The notes under the pieces are model-generated. The model made no database searches, was not told the origin of the DNA, and was given only the letters and a program-made list of their open reading frames with translations. Both the position numbers and the translations under genes were made by a program. From IMG/VR virus record IMGVR_UViG_2568526722_000003, positions 1 to 13,789 of that record: a stretch of 13,789 nt of DNA; one strand, given 5' to 3'. The DNA is from a virus. Lineage: Duplodnaviria; Heunggongvirae; Uroviricota; Caudoviricetes. Shown here piece by piece: positions 3,503 through 13,789 of the stretch. Position 1 is the stretch's first letter; the number at the start of each line of letters is the position of its first letter.

Positions 3503-3970
3503 AAGGGATATCAGTTAAGTTATCCCGTGTAGGGTATAAGCCATTATCAAAGCCACTCTGTAGGGAATGGCTTTTGTGATGGCATCACTTACTCTTTACG
3601 CTGCTATCCCACTCATCCCGGAATTTTGATGGGTTATTGAAACCTTCTGCTGACATAACAACTCCTTCAATGTTTGGCTGAAATTAGGATGTCTTTCCAT
3701 CAGTCCGCCACCACAAAGAATCTTTTTTGCCATAAGGCAGGAGGTTCATCTTTCAGTGGCTGCCGGTGTTATTTCCCCACTTACTGGCTTGGGTTGTTTC
3801 GTGGTACTGCCGTTAACTGGTGGCGCACAGATTTAGTTAAATCCGTTCTCGCCTGAACTATCTTTTACATACCCGGATTGTGGGGATGTAAATCACGGTT
3901 TCATTATCAAGCCCACCAGTAGATGGGCTTTGTAATGAAGAGTTGTTATGAAAATTGCTCTAAACAAGCA

Positions 3971-4459
3971 TTAATAGCCATCAGAAGTAATCGCTACAGA
4001 TTTCAATCCCTCAATGTCATCCTTGGACAGGGCGAACCATTCACCGTGCTTTCTCTTTGCGGCAAATTTGCGATGAAGCATGTTTTCAGTTTCTCTTCCA
4101 CCAGGGATCAGGCACTCAAGCTTCAAGCAGTCTGGTCCAGAGTTGCCAAGCGATTTGATGCGTTGTGGAATGTTGGATGAATACCCAATTTTGGTTAGCC
4201 CAGTTTTCTTCGATGACAAAACGTATACCTGAGGAGGTTCTTTTCTCTGGTCTTCCATTACACGTCTCATTGTTGCCATAAGTCCGCCGTGCATCAGCAT
4301 TTCAACAAAGAACGCTGACCGAACACCTGACGACTTAAGCATGCCAGAAAATTCACTTGCCAATTCCATTAACTCTGCGATGTTTTCAGGAACTTTTTGG
4401 CAGTTATCTTCCTTGTATAAGGAAATCATTCTTTGAAGCTTTTCTTCTAATTGGTTCAT
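3971..4459 (-). CDS. T5orf172 / GIY-YIG-like domain protein (~162 aa) with an unrecognised N-terminal region
   Basis: C-terminal half (VYVLSSKKTGLTKIGYSSNIPQRIKSLGNSGPDCLKLECLIPGGRETENMLHRKFAAKRKHGEWFALSKDDIEGL) fits the T5orf172/MUG113 pattern (YVYxL...KIG.T.N..RR...L...E..LH..F...R..GEWF); the track start at 4495 is GTG, the first ATG is at 4457-4459 (MNQLEEK...). Confidence 0.6.
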   Translation of the reverse strand: MNQLEEKLQRMISLYKEDNCQKVPENIAELMELASEFSGMLKSSGVRSAFFVEMLMHGGLMATMRRVMEDQRKEPPQVYVLSSKKTGLTKIGYSSNIPQRIKSLGNSGPDCLKLECLIPGGRETENMLHRKFAAKRKHGEWFALSKDDIEGLKSVAITSDGY

Positions 4460-4608
4460 AGCGTCTTTACCTTTTAGAAAGTGAGCCTGTCTCACAGAAA
4501 AGCCGCCCCGAGATGGTCGCCACCATATACGGCAGTTCTCAGGCTCAACTTTCTGAAAGGCTCGGGTGATGTAATATGCGCGTGAGATGCGCTGTGAAAT
4601 TCAGATGT

Positions 4609-4632
4609 AAAAAAAGCCCCGCATCGCGAGGC
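4609..4632 (-). terminator. Rho-independent terminator downstream of Rz/Rz1
   Basis: Minus strand GCCTCGCGATGCGGGGC (7-bp GC-rich stem with one G-U pair, 3-nt loop) followed by TTTTTTT, about 30 nt after the Rz stop. Confidence 0.6.
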
Positions 4633-4664
4633 TCATTAAATGGACTTTGTGATTTGCAAAAAAA

Positions 4665-5123
4665 TTATTTCAGGCATTGCGTCCTGATGTATTCCTGCAG
4701 GTAGTTAACCTGCGCGGTTATCTTGTCGATTCCACTTCGGAGACGGTAATAATTGAGTTCAGCATCTGCTGTAAGTCCTGGGCTTTCTCCATCGCCCATG
4801 CCGCTGGCTCCGGTCGTTGACTTTGCACAGGTGGCGGCGACTTGCAGGCGCTTACGCCCAGCAGAAACATCAGCACGGAGACTTTCGATAGTCGCGTTAG
4901 CATCAGCAAGCTCCTTTGTGTATCTTGCGTCGAGTTCTGCTACATCACGTTGACGCTTCCGCATGTCAGCGATGGTGGCGTTCGCCTTCTCCAGTTCACT
5001 GGCCTTGTTATCGCGCTGCTCTTTGTAGGCGATTGCGTTATCACGGTAATGATTAACAGCCCATGACAGGCAGACGATGATGCAGATACCCGGCACTACC
5101 TGCTGAGGTGCCATAGGCGACAC
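4665..5123 (-). CDS. Rz: Spanin inner-membrane subunit Rz (i-spanin), N-terminus chimeric
   Basis: From [19 protein letters not shown]...KELADA... onward resembles lambda Rz as recalled; the first ~12 codons (from a GTG start) are encoded within the holin stub in another frame. Confidence 0.7.
4718..4903 (-). CDS. Rz1: Spanin outer-membrane lipoprotein Rz1 (o-spanin), embedded in Rz in the +1 frame
   Basis: [36 protein letters not shown]...: signal peptide with lipobox (LGVSAC) followed by a proline-rich region, wholly inside Rz as in lambda Rz/Rz1; ATG at 4901-4903. Confidence 0.7.
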
Positions 5124-5151
5124 CCGTTGTTAACTTATCCATGGATTTCAT
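5059..5151 (-). pseudogene. Holin remnant: first ~22 codons of a phage-21/DLP12 EssD-type holin ([22 protein letters not shown]), then out-of-frame read into Rz and stop
   Basis: ATG at 5149-5151 with GAGGTG Shine-Dalgarno; N-terminus matches S21/EssD as recalled; after ~22 codons the sequence continues as Rz in another frame; no endolysin ORF lies between holin and Rz. Confidence 0.65.
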
Positions 5152-5260
5152 AACCCCACCTCGCAGACAAAGCGGGTGTAAATTGAGGGAATACTACGAA
5201 ACGTAACAGACTCGGAGTCAGTGAATAACTCAGGTATTGGGTTATCAGCTAATATCGAGA

Positions 5261-5296
5261 CTCAAAAAATGGAAAAACCCACTCGACGGCGGGTTT
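5261..5296 (-). terminator. Candidate intrinsic terminator on the late-operon strand upstream of the holin stub
   Basis: Minus strand AAACCC-gccgtcgagt-GGGTTT followed by TTCCATTTTTTGAG. Confidence 0.3.
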
Positions 5297-5724
5297 AAGC
5301 TGTGTGACGAAGTAACCACTCTTAACAGCATAACCAATTTTTTACGTACGTAAACCACTAAATGATATTTGCGAGAATGCTACCGAGTATTGAAAACACC
5401 ACTACAAATACATAAGCAAATCTCAACAAATAACCAACAAATAATTCCCAGTGTTATTTTTAGCCGATTTAAATTGAACCTTCAAATCATAGAGCACTTA
5501 TAAATAACAACCGTTAATATAAATTGGCTAATAGATTTATTTTTATTCAGCCAAGAGCCATGAATAGGATTCGATAGAAAAAAGTTCAGATAAAAATAGA
5601 GATCTACTTCACAAATCAAACGAGAAACCAAAACTTACATCTTGAAATAATCATATTGATTAGATGAATATTTATCGCGCAGTGACATCATTTTTTAATA
5701 ATAGTTCAAAAAAAAGGGCTCACG

Positions 5725-6822
5725 ATGAAAAAATTAACAGTGGCAATTTCTGCTGTAGCTGCATCAGTACTGATGGCGATGTCTGCTCAGGCAGCTGAAA
5801 TTTATAATAAAGACAGTAACAAGCTGGATCTGTACGGGAAAGTTAATGCTAAGCACTACTTCTCCTCTAATGATGCAGATGATGGTGATACTACTTATGC
5901 CCGTCTTGGCTTCAAAGGTGAAACCCAAATCAACGATCAACTGACTGGTTTCGGTCAGTGGGAATATGAATTCAAAGGCAACCGCGCTGAATCTCAAGGT
6001 TCCTCCAAAGATAAAACCCGTCTTGCCTTCGCTGGCCTGAAATTCGGTGACTACGGCTCCATCGATTACGGCCGTAACTACGGTGTAGCATACGACATCG
6101 GTGCGTGGACTGACGTTCTGCCAGAATTCGGTGGCGATACCTGGACCCAAACAGATGTGTTCATGACTGGTCGCACCACTGGTGTTGCAACCTATCGTAA
6201 CAACGACTTCTTTGGTCTGGTTGATGGTCTGAACTTTGCTGCTCAGTACCAAGGCAAAAACGATCGTAGCGATTTCGATAACTACACCGAAGGTAACGGT
6301 GATGGCTTCGGTTTCTCTGCTACCTATGAATACGAAGGATTCGGTATCGGTGCAACTTATGCGAAATCTGATCGTACCGACACTCAAGTTAATGCAGGGA
6401 AAGTTCTTCCTGAAGTATTTGCTTCCGGTAAAAATGCAGAAGTTTGGGCCGCAGGTCTGAAATATGACGCTAACAACATTTACCTGGCCACTACCTATTC
6501 TGAAACCCAGAATATGACTGTATTTGCTGATCACTTCGTTGCTAATAAAGCTCAAAACTTCGAAGCTGTTGCACAATATCAGTTCGATTTCGGTCTGCGT
6601 CCGTCCGTTGCTTACCTGCAATCTAAAGGTAAGGATCTTGGAGTATGGGGCGATCAGGACTTAGTCAAATATGTTGATGTAGGTGCAACCTATTACTTCA
6701 ACAAAAATATGTCTACTTTCGTTGATTACAAAATCAACCTGCTTGACAAAAATGACTTCACTAAAGCACTCGGTGTAAGCACTGATGACATCGTTGCTGT
6801 AGGTCTGGTTTACCAGTTCTAA
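5725..6822 (+). CDS. nmpC: OmpC-family outer-membrane porin (NmpC / phage Lc type), 365 aa, intact
   Basis: Signal peptide [23 protein letters not shown]|AEIYNKD, porin motifs and C-terminal ...VAVGLVYQF; full-length and uninterrupted; opposite orientation to Q and the lysis genes, as for DLP12 nmpC and PA-2 lc. Confidence 0.9.
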
Positions 6823-6830
6823 TCTGATTA

Positions 6831-6872
6831 CGAAAAAGATATGTTGCGGGAGGCTTTGCCTCCCCAACATAT
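6831..6872 (-). terminator. Candidate late terminator (tR'-like) downstream of Q on the minus strand
   Basis: Minus strand ATATGTTGGGGAGGC-aaag-GCCTCCCGCAACATAT (about 15-bp stem) followed by CTTTTTCG; about 140 nt downstream of the Q stop. Confidence 0.45.
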
Positions 6873-6960
6873 AAGTGGCTCCCTCAAGCCACTTCCTTTA
6901 GGAGCACAACCTTGCTTCTAACTATATAAACCTTCTGTTATATATTACCCTTTATTTTTG

Positions 6961-6990
6961 GGGGCGTTGCAACGCCCCATTTTTAATAAT
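6961..6990 (+). terminator. Rho-independent terminator for the porin gene; perfect 18-bp palindrome
   Basis: GGGGCGTTGCAACGCCCC followed by ATTTTTAATAATTTTT on the plus strand. Confidence 0.5.
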
Positions 6991-7011
6991 TTTTAGTAAA
7001 CAACTGGCATA

Positions 7012-7395
7012 TTAATTAGAGTTATTAACAACGATATCCATCTCTAACCGGATATCTAATGCCATTAACATCCCTTCAATTATGCCCTCAGCCTTCTGTA
7101 ACCTTTTCCCGATATAACCATCAGAGCAGCAATGCTTACCTGCCAGTGACATGAATGTCATACCGACTACATAATAATCTACTAATAAATCGTGCAAATC
7201 GCTGTTGTTCTTTTTCAGACGGGCCATGCACCCGCAAATAATCATCGCGTCATCGTCACAACATTGCGGGCGAGATTTTACTTTTGAAGTAATTAATCCC
7301 TTAAAACCGGCGGCAATGGACGACCAGGTCACATCTTCATGATTATTAGCCGCCCACGCTCCCCAACGCTCAAGAACCATCTGAATATCACGCAT
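7012..7395 (-). CDS. Q: Late-gene antiterminator Q, phage 21/82 (DLP12 QuuD) type, 127 aa
   Basis: [34 protein letters not shown]...[16 protein letters not shown]... matches DLP12-type Q as recalled; ATG at 7393-7395 (the track start at 7410 is TTG). Confidence 0.85.
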
Positions 7396-7480
7396 CAACT
7401 TACTCCACAAAAATCAGGCCAGAACGCCAATTACAAGCAAAAATCAACAAAACAGTATTAGTTGATTGTTATCTCTGACT

Positions 7481-7621
7481 TCATACTCCTGCTCCTGTCA
7501 GGGTTTTGGCGTAATTCTTCAGTATTCGGTAATCGGTCAAAACAGAACCGGGGGAACGATATAAGCGCAGACGCCCCCAGCGGTGGCGAAGAAGTTCTGC
7601 CATATTAAACTCAAACATCAT
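7481..7621 (-). CDS. ylcG: Small protein YlcG-like (46 aa)
   Basis: Hand-translated [49 protein letters not shown]; its ATG overlaps the rusA stop (ATGA); matches DLP12 YlcG as recalled; below the track size cutoff. Confidence 0.6.
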
Positions 7622-7980
7622 TCATTCCCCATTTCGGTGATGGTCAGTTCCAGCCTCCCACCTTTGGTAACAGGCATCTTCACAACGCGGTAATCAACGA
7701 CCTGAGCATCATCCAGCCAGAAACCTGCTTTAGTGAGTGCGTCAAAAGCGGCTTTTTGCAGATTATCCAGGTCACGGCGACGGCGATCCGGCATGTGGCA
7801 CTCAATGCGGATTTTCACAGGCATAGCCAGGCCGATATCCAGCATTGCGTTTTTAATGATTCGGGCGACGTTATCGCGGTATGCCTGCCCCTCTGCGCTG
7901 ACGTGCGTGCGCCCTCGATTATGGCGGTAGTAGCGGTTATTGCTCGGCGGCCAGGGTAGTGTGATGTGGTAAGTATTCAC
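7618..7980 (-). CDS. rusA: Holliday-junction resolvase RusA, 120 aa
   Basis: (M)[37 protein letters not shown]...[28 protein letters not shown]... matches RusA as recalled; GTG start overlapping the upstream stop (GTGA). Confidence 0.93.
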
Positions 7981-8066
7981 GCCTTAATTACCCCCTCTTT
8001 CAGCCAGATAACCTGCGTTCTCGCCATACCTTCCAGCGCGCATTCTTTTGCATATGCAGCATCGAC
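7977..8066 (-). pseudogene. ybcO: C-terminal remnant of a YbcO-like (DUF1364) gene, about 29 codons
   Basis: Frame ending ...[29 protein letters not shown] with the stop overlapping the rusA start; matches the YbcO C-terminus as recalled; further upstream the frame hits a stop and no N-terminal YbcO-like sequence appears in any frame. Confidence 0.4.
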
Positions 8067-8186
8067 TTGCTTGGCATGCCCTTTACCGGCAATCTTCTGT
8101 ATGCGCTAAACCTAGATAGAATCCACTCTGTGCACATTGAAGCCCGCTCTATGCTTCCTTTCAGGTATTGAAGGGATTGAGATGGG

Positions 8187-8534
8187 CTAAGCATTATTGG
8201 CCTCCTGCATCAGGAGAAAGACAATCATGGCGGCGCGGAGAGGTCTGGTATCAAATATTGGGCTTACGCCTTTTGCATCCACACACCATTCAGTTAACTG
8301 GTCTAAGATAGAAATCCTGTATTTCTCAATAATCGGCCATGAAGCGCTCGGATCATTGCAGTAGTCAGGCAAATGATTTAATGGCTCAAAAGTTGTATCA
8401 GCATTTCCGTAATACCATTTGTTGGTGTTATTCCCTGATGTTTCCGGTTTACTTGCCCAAAGGCCTTTAAAAATTATGTCTCCTACCATTCTGTTAATTT
8501 CAAAATCACTTAACTGTGAATAATCCATTGTCAT
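8187..8534 (-). CDS. Hypothetical nin-region protein (~115 aa)
   Basis: [92 protein letters not shown]...; ATG overlaps the ninE stop (ATGA); GAGGAA nearby; family not recognised. Confidence 0.5.
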
Positions 8535-8707
8535 TTCCTCGCACGATATCTTAGCCACCGGATATCCCACAGGTGAGCTGTGTAATTGAAGGTTTTTACG
8601 TCAGATTCTTTTGGGATTGGCTTGCGTTTATTTCTGGAGCGTTTCGTTGGAAGGTATTTGCAGTTTTCGCAGATGATGTCGGTGAAACTTCGTCGCTGTC
8701 GCCTCAT
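8531..8707 (-). CDS. ninE: NinE, 58 aa
   Basis: [58 protein letters not shown] matches lambda NinE as recalled; ATG overlaps the methyltransferase stop. Confidence 0.75.
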
Positions 8708-9231
8708 GCCGCCCTCCTGACGCCCTGCCCGAACGCCATCAATGCCGCTTTGGATACGGTAGTAAACATCCGTCGAGGACTGATGAACGGTCGCCAAATC
8801 AGCAGCATGGAGCCTTTGCTGTTTCCCTTCTTCTCCAGCCCTGTCGATGGTTCGATAAAATTAATCCGTCCATCAGTGATAATGCGAACTTCGTCGACAC
8901 TCTCCAGAGCCTTGCTGAACCATCCGACTGACATATCCTCTGGCACAAGCATAACTACCGTCTGTCGCTGTTGTATGCACTGCTCAGCGGCTTTTTCCAC
9001 CCACGGCCTGATATTGCTGTACGGTGGGTTATTCCAGATTGCACCGTGGCTTACCCACTCAGAATTGAGCGCGTCGTCGGCCTCAGTTAGCCAGTGAGCA
9101 CACAGAGCATTTTTGTCGCTCGCTGCCGAATCCAGCCAGAATCCAAACTCAATATCCAGTGCATCAAAAAGCCAAAGCGGCGTTTGCCAGCAGTCCTTGT
9201 CGTGTGCTGGCGTATTTGATTTGATAGTCAT
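8704..9231 (-). CDS. Phage Dam-like DNA N6-adenine methyltransferase (~175 aa)
   Basis: [50 protein letters not shown]...[16 protein letters not shown]...: NPPY catalytic motif and DxxA...WxTP pattern of the small phage N6-A methyltransferase family; ATG at 9229-9231 with GGGGAGA upstream; overlaps the ninB stop. Confidence 0.75.
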
Positions 9232-9737
9232 GCAGCTCGATCTCCCCATCTCGCTTTCCACTCCAGAGCCAGTCTCGCTTCGTCTGACCACTTAACGCCA
9301 CGCTCTGTACCGAATGCCTGTATAAGCTCTAATAGCTCCGCAAATTCGTTTACACGCATCCTGCTGGTTGACTGGCCTATTACCACAAAGCCATTCCCGG
9401 CAAGGTTAGGAACAACATCCTGCTGCTTTAATGCTGCGGTAAACACACACTTCCAGCTTTCTGCATCCAGCCAGCGACCATGCCATTCAACCTGACGAGA
9501 GACGTCACCAAGGCAAGCCCAAAGCTTTCGATTCTGGTCTAAGCTGCGGTTGCGTTCCTGAATGGTTACTACGATTGGTTTGGTTGGGTCTGGAAGAATT
9601 TGCTGTAACCGCCCTATTCTCTCGCTGAATCGCAAACCGAAATCACGAGTAGAAAGCGCACTGAATCCGATAGACCTTACGGTGCTGGCTGAATACCACG
9701 AACAGATTGAAAGCAACCTGCAACGTATTGAGCGCAA
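9228..9737 (-). CDS. ninB: Recombination protein NinB (Orf), C-terminal ~125 aa lambda-like, N-terminal ~44 codons atypical with no canonical start
   Basis: From QQILPDPTKPIVVTIQERNRSLDQNRKLWACLGDVSRQVEWHGRWLDAESWKCVFTAALKQQ... to the stop matches lambda NinB as recalled; the preceding 44 codons do not, and the track start is a TTG. Confidence 0.65.
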   Translation of the reverse strand: MRSIRCRLLSICSWYSASTVRSIGFSALSTRDFGLRFSERIGRLQQILPDPTKPIVVTIQERNRSLDQNRKLWACLGDVSRQVEWHGRWLDAESWKCVFTAALKQQDVVPNLAGNGFVVIGQSTSRMRVNEFAELLELIQAFGTERGVKWSDEARLALEWKARWGDRAA

Positions 9738-9839
9738 GAATCATCGAGTTTGGTATAGCAAGCCAAGTGAGTTCGGTATAACTTGTCAAGGAAGACAAAA
9801 GGTTAAAGGGAAATCCATTCCATTGGCATGAGGTACGTA

Positions 9840-10169
9840 ATGAAGAAAATTGATTACAAGTCCATACCAAAACCAATAGACTCAGCATCAGAGCGAAAAA
9901 AACACAAAAAAGAGGCTGAAAAATTAGCAAATTATATCAGTTTTATTAGAAACAATGCTCACGGCGATGGCGACAGGAAGTTGCTTTCAGATGCCCGGAC
10001 CCAAGCGTTCAGTATACTTCGTAAGCAGATGCAATATCGTCTTCATCCAGGCTACATAATTGAAATTCGCCCGACTGAAAGACAATTGTTCTTATTAAAC
10101 TCTGTCTTTGACTTTGTAAACGTAGTTGGAGATCTTATCGACAGGTCTGTAGATAAGGCTCCTGGGTGA
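9840..10169 (+). CDS. AT-rich hypothetical protein, 3' end cut by IS1 (stop supplied by the IS1 left end)
   Basis: ORF MKKIDYKSIPKPIDSASERKKHKKEAEKLANYISFIRNNAHGDGDRKLLSDARTQAFSILRKQMQYRLHPGYIIEIRPTERQLFLLNSVFDFVNVVGDLIDRSVDKAPG*; ATG at 9840 with GAGG 8 nt upstream; low GC; the last codons and stop (GG TGA) are IS1 sequence; no family recognised. Confidence 0.45.
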   Translation: MKKIDYKSIPKPIDSASERKKHKKEAEKLANYISFIRNNAHGDGDRKLLSDARTQAFSILRKQMQYRLHPGYIIEIRPTERQLFLLNSVFDFVNVVGDLIDRSVDKAPG

Positions 10170-10219
10170 TGCTGCCAACTTACTGATTTAGTGTATGATG
10201 GTGTTTTTGAGGTGCTCCA

Positions 10220-10495
10220 GTGGCTTCTGTTTCTATCAGCTGTCCCTCCTGTTCAGCTACTGACGGGGTGGTGCGTAACGGCAAAAGCACCGCCGGACAT
10301 CAGCGCTATCTCTGCTCTCACTGCCGTAAAACATGGCAACTGCAGTTCACTTACACCGCTTCTCAACCCGGTACGCACCAGAAAATCATTGATATGGCCA
10401 TGAATGGCGTTGGATGCCGGGCAACTGCCCGCATTATGGGCGTTGGCCTCAACACGATTTTACGTCACTTAAAAAACTCAGGCCGCAGTCGGTAA
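10220..10495 (+). CDS. insA: IS1 InsA (transposition inhibitor / transposase N-terminal part), 91 aa
   Basis: [43 protein letters not shown]... matches IS1 InsA. Confidence 0.95.
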
Positions 10496-10917
10496 CCTCG
10501 CGCATACAGCCGGGCAGTGACGTCATCGTCTGCGCGGAAATGGACGAACAGTGGGGCTATGTCGGGGCTAAATCGCGCCAGCGCTGGCTGTTTTACGCGT
10601 ATGACAGTCTCCGGAAGACGGTTGTTGCGCACGTATTCGGTGAGCGCACTATGGCGACGCTGGGGCGTCTTATGAGCCTGCTGTCACCCTTTGACGTGGT
10701 GATATGGATGACGGATGGCTGGCCGCTGTATGAATCCCGCCTGAAGGGAAAGCTGCACGTAATCAGCAAGCGATATACGCAGCGAATTGAGCGGCATAAC
10801 CTGAATCTGAGGCAGCACCTGGCACGGCTGGGACGGAAGTCGCTGTCGTTCTCAAAATCGGTGGAGCTGCATGACAAAGTCATCGGGCATTATCTGAACA
10901 TAAAACACTATCAATAA
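10414..10917 (+). CDS. insB: IS1 InsB' frame (transposase catalytic part, expressed as InsAB' by -1 frameshift)
   Basis: ...[72 protein letters not shown]... matches IS1 InsB. Confidence 0.93.
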
Positions 10918-11042
10918 GTTGGAGTCATTACCAGAAAGCAGGTCTTTCTCTCGTGTAGAGATAAGCGAGTCAGAGTTATGGGGTATATCAAATAATCCTG
11001 TAAACCACGCTCACCAACGAAATCCAAACAAAAAGTGGTCAT

Positions 11043-11672: not shown

Positions 11673-11837
11673 ATGCAATATGCCATTGCAGGGTGGCCTG
11701 TTGCTGGCTGCCCTTCCGAATCTTTACTTGAACGAATCACCCGTAAATTACGTGACGGATGGAAACGCCTTATCGACATACTTAATCAGCCAGGAGTCCC
11801 AAAAAATGGATCAAACACTTATGGCTATCCAGACTAA
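11673..11837 (+). CDS. cIII: CIII (FtsH/HflB protease inhibitor), 54 aa
   Basis: Hand-translated [54 protein letters not shown] matches lambda CIII; AAGGAG Shine-Dalgarno upstream; the track merged it with kil. Confidence 0.9.
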   Translation: MQYAIAGWPVAGCPSESLLERITRKLRDGWKRLIDILNQPGVPKNGSNTYGYPD

Positions 11838-11949
11838 ATTCACTATCGCCACTTTTATTGGCGATGAAAAGATGTTTCGTGAAGCCGTCGACGCTTATAA
11901 AAAATGTATATTAATGCTGAAACTGAGATCAAGCAAAAGCATTCACTAA
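11806..11949 (+). CDS. kil: Kil (host FtsZ/cell-division inhibitor), 47 aa
   Basis: [47 protein letters not shown] matches lambda Kil as recalled; overlaps the cIII 3' end as in lambda. Confidence 0.85.
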
Positions 11950-12024
11950 CCCCCTTTCCTGTTTTCCTAATCAGCCTGGCATTTCGCGGGCGCTATTTTC
12001 ACAGCCATTTTCAGGAGTTCAGCC

Positions 12025-12321
12025 ATGAACGCTTATTACATTCAGGATCGTCTTGAGGCTCAGAGCTGGGCGCGTCACTACCAGCAGATCGCCCGTGAAG
12101 AGAAAGAGGCAGAACTGGCAGACGACATGGAAAAAGGCCTGCCCCAGCACCTGTTTGAATCGCTATGCATCGATCATTTGCAACGCCACGGGGCCAGCAA
12201 AAAAGCCATTACCCGTGCGTTTGATGACGATGTTGAGTTTCAGGAGCGCATGGCAGAACACATCCGGTACATGGTTGAAACCATTGCTCACCACCAAGTT
12301 GATATTGATTCAGAGGTATAA
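12025..12321 (+). CDS. gam: Gam (RecBCD inhibitor), GamS form, 98 aa
   Basis: [98 protein letters not shown] matches lambda Gam. Confidence 0.93.
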
Positions 12322-12326
12322 AACGG

Positions 12327-13112
12327 ATGAGTACAGCACTCGCAACGCTGGCAGGGAAGCTGGCTGAACGTGTCGGCATGGATTCTGTCGACCCACAGGA
12401 ACTGATCACCACTCTTCGCCAGACGGCATTTAAAGGTGATGCCAGCGATGCGCAGTTCATCGCATTGTTGATCGTCGCCAACCAGTACGGCCTTAATCCG
12501 TGGACGAAAGAAATTTACGCCTTCCCTGATAAGCAGAACGGCATCGTTCCGGTGGTGGGCGTTGATGGCTGGTCCCGCATCATCAATGAAAACCAGCAGT
12601 TTGATGGCATGGACTTTGAGCAGGACAATGAATCCTGTACATGCCGGATTTACCGCAAGGACCGTAATCATCCGATCTGCGTTACCGAATGGATGGATGA
12701 ATGCCGCCGCGAACCATTCAAAACTCGCGAAGGCAGAGAAATCACGGGGCCGTGGCAGTCGCATCCCAAACGGATGTTACGGCATAAAGCCATGATTCAG
12801 TGTGCCCGTCTGGCCTTCGGATTTGCTGGTATCTATGACAAGGATGAAGCCGAGCGCATTGTCGAAAATACTGCATACACTGCAGAACGTCAGCCAGAAC
12901 GCGACATCACTCCGGTTAACGATGAAACCATGCAGGAGATTAACACTCTGCTGATCGCCCTGGATAAAACATGGGATGACGACTTATTGCCGCTCTGTTC
13001 CCAGATATTTCGCCGCGACATTCGCGCATCGTCAGAACTGACACAGGCCGAAGCAGTGAAAGCTCTTGGATTCCTGAAACAGAAAGCCACTGAGCAGAAG
13101 GTGGCAGCATGA
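12327..13112 (+). CDS. bet: Bet (Red-beta single-strand annealing recombinase), 261 aa
   Basis: Full-length match to lambda Bet ([44 protein letters not shown]...). Confidence 0.96.
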
Positions 13113-13789
13113 TACCGGACATTATCCTGCAGCGTACCGGGATCGACGTGAGAGCTGTCGAACAGGGGGATGATGCATGGCACAAATTACGGCTCGGCGT
13201 CATCACCGCTTCAGAAGTTCACAACGTGATAGCAAAGCCCCGCTCAGGAAAGAAGTGGCCTGACATGAAAATGTCCTACTTCCACACCCTGCTGGCTGAG
13301 GTTTGCACCGGTGTGGCTCCGGAAGTTAATGCTAAGGCGCTGGCCTGGGGAAAACAGTACGAGAACGACGCCAGAACCCTGTTTGAATTCACTTCCGGCG
13401 TGAATGTTACTGAATCCCCGATCATCTATCGCGACGAAAATATGCGCACTGCCTGCTCTCCCGATGGTTTATGCAGTGACGGCAACGGCCTTGAACTGAA
13501 ATGCCCGTTTACCTCCCGGGATTTCATGAAATTCCGGCTCGGTGGTTTCGAGGCAATAAAATCGGCTTACATGGCCCAGGTGCAGTACAGCATGTGGGTG
13601 ACGCGAAAAGATGCCTGGTACTTTGCCAACTATGACCCGCGCATGAAGCGTGAAGGCCTGCATTATGTCGTGATTGAGCGGAATGAAAAGTACATGGCGA
13701 GTTTTGACGAGATGGTGCCGGAGTTCATCGAAAAAATGGACGAGGCACTGGCTGAAATTGGTTTTGTATTTGGGGAGCAATGGCGATGA
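13109..13789 (+). CDS. exo: Exo (Red-alpha 5'-3' exonuclease), 226 aa
   Basis: Full-length match to lambda Exo ([40 protein letters not shown]...GFVFGEQWR*); ATGA overlap with bet; the stop codon is the last 3 nt of the window. Confidence 0.96.

Follow-up and report, generated by a model that had tools for sequence, protein, structure and literature searches.

The window, by which we mean the whole 13,789-nucleotide stretch of DNA that was analysed, holds a decayed lambda-like (lambdoid) prophage of the DLP12 type from Escherichia coli, with its lysis features on the minus strand. Two related loci served for comparison: that of strain HKUOPY1 (L001), which provides the intact reference for the lysis genes (essD, 71 aa; rrrD, 165 aa; Rz, 152 aa), and the 25-kb element of strain EM18-18-42 (L003), the most complete relative, on which we mapped the whole window and found four lesions. 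The features on which the following account depends are these:

junction 2042/2046: head/terminase deletion, with about 6.7 kb gone from the major capsid gene to nohD
3971-4495, minus strand: ORF with a GIY-YIG / T5orf172 (MUG113) domain, directly 3' of the lysis operon
4614..4634, minus strand: terminator-like hairpin and T-run (consensus scan only) just 3' of the Rz stop, marking the end of the lysis operon
4665..5087, minus strand: Rz (i-spanin) codons 13-152 and stop codon; PF03245
4718..4903, minus strand: intact Rz1 (o-spanin lipoprotein), 61 codons in the +1 frame of Rz; PF06085
5053..5087, minus strand: out-of-frame tail of the holin stub ORF, 10 residues by translation, being Rz DNA read in the holin frame, with the stop TAA at 5055..5053
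5088/5087: junction of the lysis deletion, at which 681 bp (L001 6315..6995) are absent, with a 2-bp TA microhomology
5088..5151, minus strand: essD remnant, codons 1-22 with the Met1/Met4 dual-start motif, 100% identical to L001; partial PF04971
5725..6822, plus strand: intact porin of the OmpC family, an NmpC-type moron of 365 aa
7012..7410, minus strand: intact late antiterminator Q (quuD); PF06530; PGAP quuD WP_001204791.1
about 9606-9612: immunity/replication deletion, with about 4.26 kb gone from ninB to N
10165-10932: IS1, with 433 bp of the right flank absent relative to L003

The porin had been called intact in the initial annotation and it is indeed complete, matching positions 1-337 of the 337 in Porin_1 and scoring 526 bits against the NCBIfam OmpC subfamily model (cutoff 484). 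It is flanked by Q and the lysis cassette, lies on the strand opposite to both, and is thus crossed in antisense by any late transcript. A second terminator-like hairpin with a T-run (5275-5296, minus strand; consensus scan only) lies some 125 bp 5' of the holin start, and could represent a tR'-like element or the rear end of a moron. On the other side of the lysis genes, the GIY-YIG protein gave a weak match to the candidate defence model PDC-S57 (E 8e-6) when PADLOC was run on the neighbouring small genes. The Red module (Kil, Gam, Bet and exonuclease; 11680-13789, plus strand) is intact, and the repressor and early promoters have been lost from the remnant.

Because the flanks of the element are outside the window, its integration site was read in genomes with the identical scar and in the intact relative. 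In these relatives the element lies next to a tRNA-Arg gene, between fimZ/sfm and appY/ompT, with cus genes replacing the appY-side neighbours in some relatives after flanking deletions. Judged from these flanks, the element has a DLP12-type integration (argU) and its position is that of DLP12. The order Q (quuD), antisense porin and essD at a lambdoid tRNA-Arg locus is likewise that of DLP12 in K-12 (essD-rrrD/ybcS-rzpD/rzoD), and over the upstream region and the first 22 essD codons K-12 and the window share 99.4% identity. The two elements differ in that all four lysis genes are intact in K-12, the window having lost most of essD, all of rrrD and the start of Rz, that the K-12 porin is interrupted by IS5, and that K-12 rzpD has only 81% DNA identity to the Rz allele of the window. 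In addition, K-12 DLP12 and lambda carry bor where the window has the GIY-YIG gene.

The break in the lysis genes was defined by a megablast search of positions 4500-5400 against 5,426 complete E. coli genomes, in which contiguous matches were distinguished from matches in two pieces that span 1,582 bp rather than 901 bp. Compared base by base with HKUOPY1, the window has 314 identical bp on the holin side and 589 identical bp on the Rz side, separated by a gap of 681 bp. This gap corresponds to EssD codons 23-71, all 165 RrrD codons, and the Shine-Dalgarno sequence, start and codons 1-12 of Rz (MSRVTAIISALV). The initial annotation had proposed that a holin stub abuts Rz directly, in another frame, from ICIIVCLSW onward, and that the rest of the holin, the entire endolysin gene and approximately 12 Rz codons were deleted. 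The junction at 5088/5087 supports this proposal in full, and the Rz count of 12 proved exact. The same breakpoint was recovered against EM18-18-42, a near full-length relative, and against K-12 DLP12, where the loss of 12 Rz codons was again found. The similarity of the stub and of Rz to lysis genes is not due to chance, since both flanks have 100% DNA identity to intact cassettes. The genes essD and Rz are in different frames already in the intact operon, and because 681 is a multiple of 3 they are still out of frame across the scar.

The TA at 5088-5087 forms the last two bases of the essD remnant and is common to Rz, and this 2-bp shared end points to illegitimate recombination as the source of the deletion. 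Slippage between direct repeats was also considered, as a CTGGTT motif is present at either end of the lost sequence; this candidate was rejected because both copies have been lost and only TA is shared.

The stub ORF has 32 codons (5151..5053, with its ATG at 5151), the first 22 of which encode residues that exactly match the EssD of HKUOPY1 and of K-12, the EssD sequences of these two strains being the same. Descent from essD is clear from the 314 bp, upstream sequence included, that are identical to HKUOPY1. Compared with a full-length holin (about 68-71 aa, with PF04971 above threshold), the stub falls short on both counts, as it matches only positions 1-19 of the 64 in PF04971 (Phage_holin_2_1; E 1.4e-5, 25.4 bits vs a cutoff of 26), whereas the EssD of the intact relative scores 121 bits (E 2e-35). 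Nor does it have two transmembrane helices and a charged tail, the main hydrophobic peak (residues ~31-55) and the KIKEDKRKAARGE tail having been deleted. At an identical locus PGAP labels the gene "essD, incomplete, missing C-terminus", and it is a RefSeq pseudogene. NCBIfam gave no model match for the stub, Rz or Rz1, and likewise none for the intact EssD. With 22 of the 71 residues kept and no complete transmembrane helix, the stub cannot make a holin, and from its sequence we infer that its function has been lost.

The remnant of Rz is much longer. Its residues 13-152 are 100% identical to those of the intact protein (tblastn over 140 aa, E 1e-93) and match positions 1-125 of the 126 in PF03245 (E 2e-39), so that the periplasmic coiled coil is retained. 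The frame is open from GTG 5123 or ATG 5114, both of which are inside the essD stub, to the stop at 4665, and the C-terminus reads RTQCLK. From ATG 5114 the chimeric N-terminus MAPQQVVPG- consists of nine codons of out-of-frame essD DNA ahead of Rz residues 13-152, and this is the start used by PGAP, which calls the 149-aa "lysis protein" (WP_023281832.1) intact. The native GGGGGA Shine-Dalgarno sequence is gone, and the new start is within a translated ORF and has only a weak GGGTG upstream. The protein has neither an anchor of about 20 residues nor a start coupled to the end of an endolysin gene: its hydrophobic run is reduced from 20 to 15 residues containing a Pro-Gly, the Kyte-Doolittle maximum falls from 2.63 to 1.6, and Arg3 is lost. 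The 15-residue stretch might still anchor Rz; nevertheless, these changes indicate that the chimeric Rz is a probable pseudogene. Rz1, which the initial annotation took to be intact inside Rz, is full length in PF06085 (positions 1-41 of 41, E 2.4e-20) and identical in DNA to the intact cassette, and has a signal peptide, a V-S-A-C lipobox, a proline-rich mature part and its own AAGGAG Shine-Dalgarno sequence.

The intact relative has its endolysin beside the holin, RrrD being a PF00959 Phage_lysozyme (GH24; E 3e-45), and no such gene accompanies the stub. A tblastn search of the window with RrrD found nothing better than E about 1, and a Pfam search of 30 window ORFs, shadow ORFs in the larger gaps included, identified no muralytic (lysozyme or amidase) domain. 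The domains identified in these ORFs were tail, head-tail, FI, DUF3950, DUF1398, GIY-YIG, porin, Q, RusA, NinX, NinE, Dam, NinB, IS1, DUF2528, Kil, Gam, RecT/Bet and exonuclease. The PGAP annotation of the identical locus also has no lysozyme entry. These searches bear out the earlier statement that the window is without an endolysin.

With the missing segment restored, the reconstructed ancestor has the gene order and families of the S-R-Rz/Rz1 cassette of phage 21 (PF04971, PF00959, PF03245, PF06085), and the same cassette type is present at 91-95% DNA identity to the ancestor in viable phages (ev099, PhiR49_1 and Stx phages). The window, unlike phage 21, keeps only a remnant of that cassette, with no functional holin or any endolysin. 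Phage 21 uses its holin to depolarise the inner membrane and its lysozyme to degrade peptidoglycan, after which Rz and Rz1 fuse the inner and outer membranes; spanins are inert, and no membrane fusion takes place, across intact peptidoglycan. On this basis we propose that one 681-bp deletion, made by end-joining at the 2-bp TA, eliminated the lysozyme gene entirely, together with holin codons 23-71 and the ribosome binding site, start and first 12 codons of Rz. Its products would be a 32-codon stub that has no holin function, an Rz frame with a shortened anchor and no native start, and an intact Rz1. With holin and endolysin absent, peptidoglycan would stay intact and the spanins could not fuse the membranes. 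The leftover Rz/Rz1 would be harmless, because spanins are inert while peptidoglycan is intact, and this is enough to explain why it would simply persist.

To determine how widespread the scar is, an 80-bp probe centred on its junction was searched against the same 5,426 complete E. coli genomes, and the junction was contiguous in eight of them. The sources of these genomes were diverse (pigs in Canada and Norway; people in China, Mozambique and Malawi; chicken in the USA; a bullfrog), yet they differ from the window by only about 0-7 substitutions over roughly 8 kb, with one genome having 17 over 10.9 kb. Moreover, all eight carry the identical head-deletion junction. Recurrence is implausible since the microhomology is only 2 bp, and the sequence comparisons lead us to regard the deletion as one event in the ancestor of a single closely related, globally spread E. 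coli lineage. In another E. coli genome (NZ_AP043614.1) the Rz half of the probe adjoins recT ("lysis protein | recT"), an arrangement that hints at an independent rearrangement of an Rz gene.

The lysis deletion is one of the four lesions relative to EM18-18-42. The head/terminase deletion has fused what is left of the major capsid gene to a small terminase (nohD/Nu1) remnant, with the loss of capsid, decoration protein, protease, portal, W and large terminase; its junction occurs in 11 of the 5,426 genomes. In the immunity/replication deletion a truncated ninB is joined to an N gene that has no 5' end, and ren, P, O, cII, cro and cI are lost; this junction was found in only three of the 5,426. 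The fourth lesion is the IS1 at 10165-10932, which has no target duplication in the window. IS1-adjacent deletions have at least four distinct end points across the 11 related genomes.

The nested counts of 11, 8 and 3 would suggest that the head deletion came first, then the lysis deletion and then the immunity deletion. We rejected this order after inspection of all 11 loci, as overlapping larger deletions have erased the informative junctions. The five scar genomes that do not have the ninB-N junction have larger overlapping deletions (four with an exo'-methyltransferase' fusion and one that is IS1-adjacent and reaches ninX), and in the three genomes with the head deletion and no scar an IS1-adjacent deletion of window positions 3715-10164 took the scar region together with the porin, Q and nin genes. 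None of the genomes inspected combined the scar with a complete immunity region, and nothing therefore points to an inducible prophage at the time of the deletion.

The prophage is dead for several independent reasons. Q and late transcription are undriven, because the early promoters were lost with cI, cro, O, P and the 5' end region of N, and its gene content indicates that the remnant could neither replicate nor package DNA. The initial annotation had concluded that the prophage cannot lyse its host, and this holds for the cassette examined here; however, as an account of the element it is redundant given that cI, cro, O, P, the 5' end of N and the head and terminase genes have gone as well. 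EM18-18-42 itself has a frameshifted portal gene (L003 6025-7625) and a frameshifted quuD (L003 15761-16143), and is probably also defective despite its intact lysis cassette.

We are highly confident that the ancestor was a standard phage-21/DLP12-type cassette (EssD, RrrD, Rz/Rz1) in a lambdoid prophage at tRNA-Arg (argU), and that it later became a dead lysis module through one 681-bp deletion. The deletion would then be a single step of a prophage erosion that still continues. The loss was presumably neutral; plain erosion fits the data at least as well as does selection against lethality. The scar is an instance of routine pseudogenisation, or ordinary prophage decay, of a kind already known and flagged in public annotation. 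The Rac rzpR pseudogene is another remnant of a lysis gene in a cryptic E. coli prophage. Similarly, loss of the DLP12 lysis module in Shigella is a case of lysis-gene decay in a defective lambdoid prophage (PMC7918800), although the scar in the window differs from it in being a specific 681-bp allele of one E. coli lineage.

The initial annotation had favoured an adaptive explanation, in which useful cargo was kept and lethal functions were lost. In its full form, this holds that selection disarmed the lethal module in a prophage that could still be induced, with the porin retained as useful. We consider this unlikely. It is true that the deletion removes exactly the two genes that suffice for lysis, that the porin, Q and the Red genes are intact in the window, and that Shigella is argued to have lost its DLP12 lysis module as a pathoadaptive change (PMC7918800). 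However, the megablast search found both flanks in 165 genomes, of which only eight have the contiguous junction; in the other 157 the flanks are in separated pieces, consistent with an intact cassette, and among the matches listed all 17 of the 17 two-piece genomes span the full 1,582 bp with a complete cassette. Most relatives thus appear to keep the supposedly lethal module, and the supposedly useful porin has been lost by the IS1-adjacent deletion in 3 of the 11 members of the lineage. The expectation of an inducible prophage at the time of disarming is not borne out either, as no genome was found that combines the scar with an intact immunity region. Furthermore, the K-12 operon is reported as conserved and transcribed, with a domesticated role in cell-wall maintenance and a benefit to the host (PMC7918800).

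A second alternative concerns what is left rather than what was removed. The chimeric Rz and Rz1 could constitute a working spanin that either serves another prophage in trans or acts on the envelope or on vesicle production. The Rz frame that is open from ATG 5114, the periplasmic domain and Rz1, both 100% intact, and the strong Shine-Dalgarno sequence of Rz1 would permit this, and genotypes of the K-12 lysis operon are known to change the output of outer membrane vesicles (OMVs) (PMC7918800). Yet Rz has lost its native start and Shine-Dalgarno sequence and depends on a start in a translated ORF behind a weak GGGTG, its anchor is shortened with the N-terminal Arg gone, and there are no early promoters to drive Q. 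In addition, a constructed delta-SR double mutant of K-12 had near wild-type vesicle output, its OMV levels being like those of the wild type (PMC7918800). We regard a residual spanin as quite improbable, more so than domestication. Slightly less probable again is the proposal that the scar is a selected, natural delta-S delta-R allele, by which a commensal/livestock lineage disarmed the operon as proposed for Shigella, with Rz1 and the re-started chimeric Rz still acting on the envelope (e.g., in vesiculation or outer-membrane tethering). Finally, an artefact of assembly or sequencing can be dismissed as virtually impossible. It is already refuted by the identical junction in eight complete assemblies, which are independent and differ in laboratory, host and country of origin, and by the occurrence of the exact chimeric Rz protein on 330 contigs in a large protein collection.

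We found no paper in the literature that describes this specific 681-bp allele, which is confined to one E. coli lineage, and its significance extends little beyond annotation. For annotation the consequence is direct: WP_023281832.1 in RefSeq is a deletion chimera and should be treated as a probable pseudogene. The lineage is also a natural holin/endolysin null at the DLP12 locus, and offers material for testing the host roles claimed for these genes (biofilm, peptidoglycan turnover, vesicles). Taken with their relatives that have lost the same region, the scar genomes belong to a set of 11 that forms a small, clean series of stepwise prophage erosion, several IS1-adjacent deletions included.
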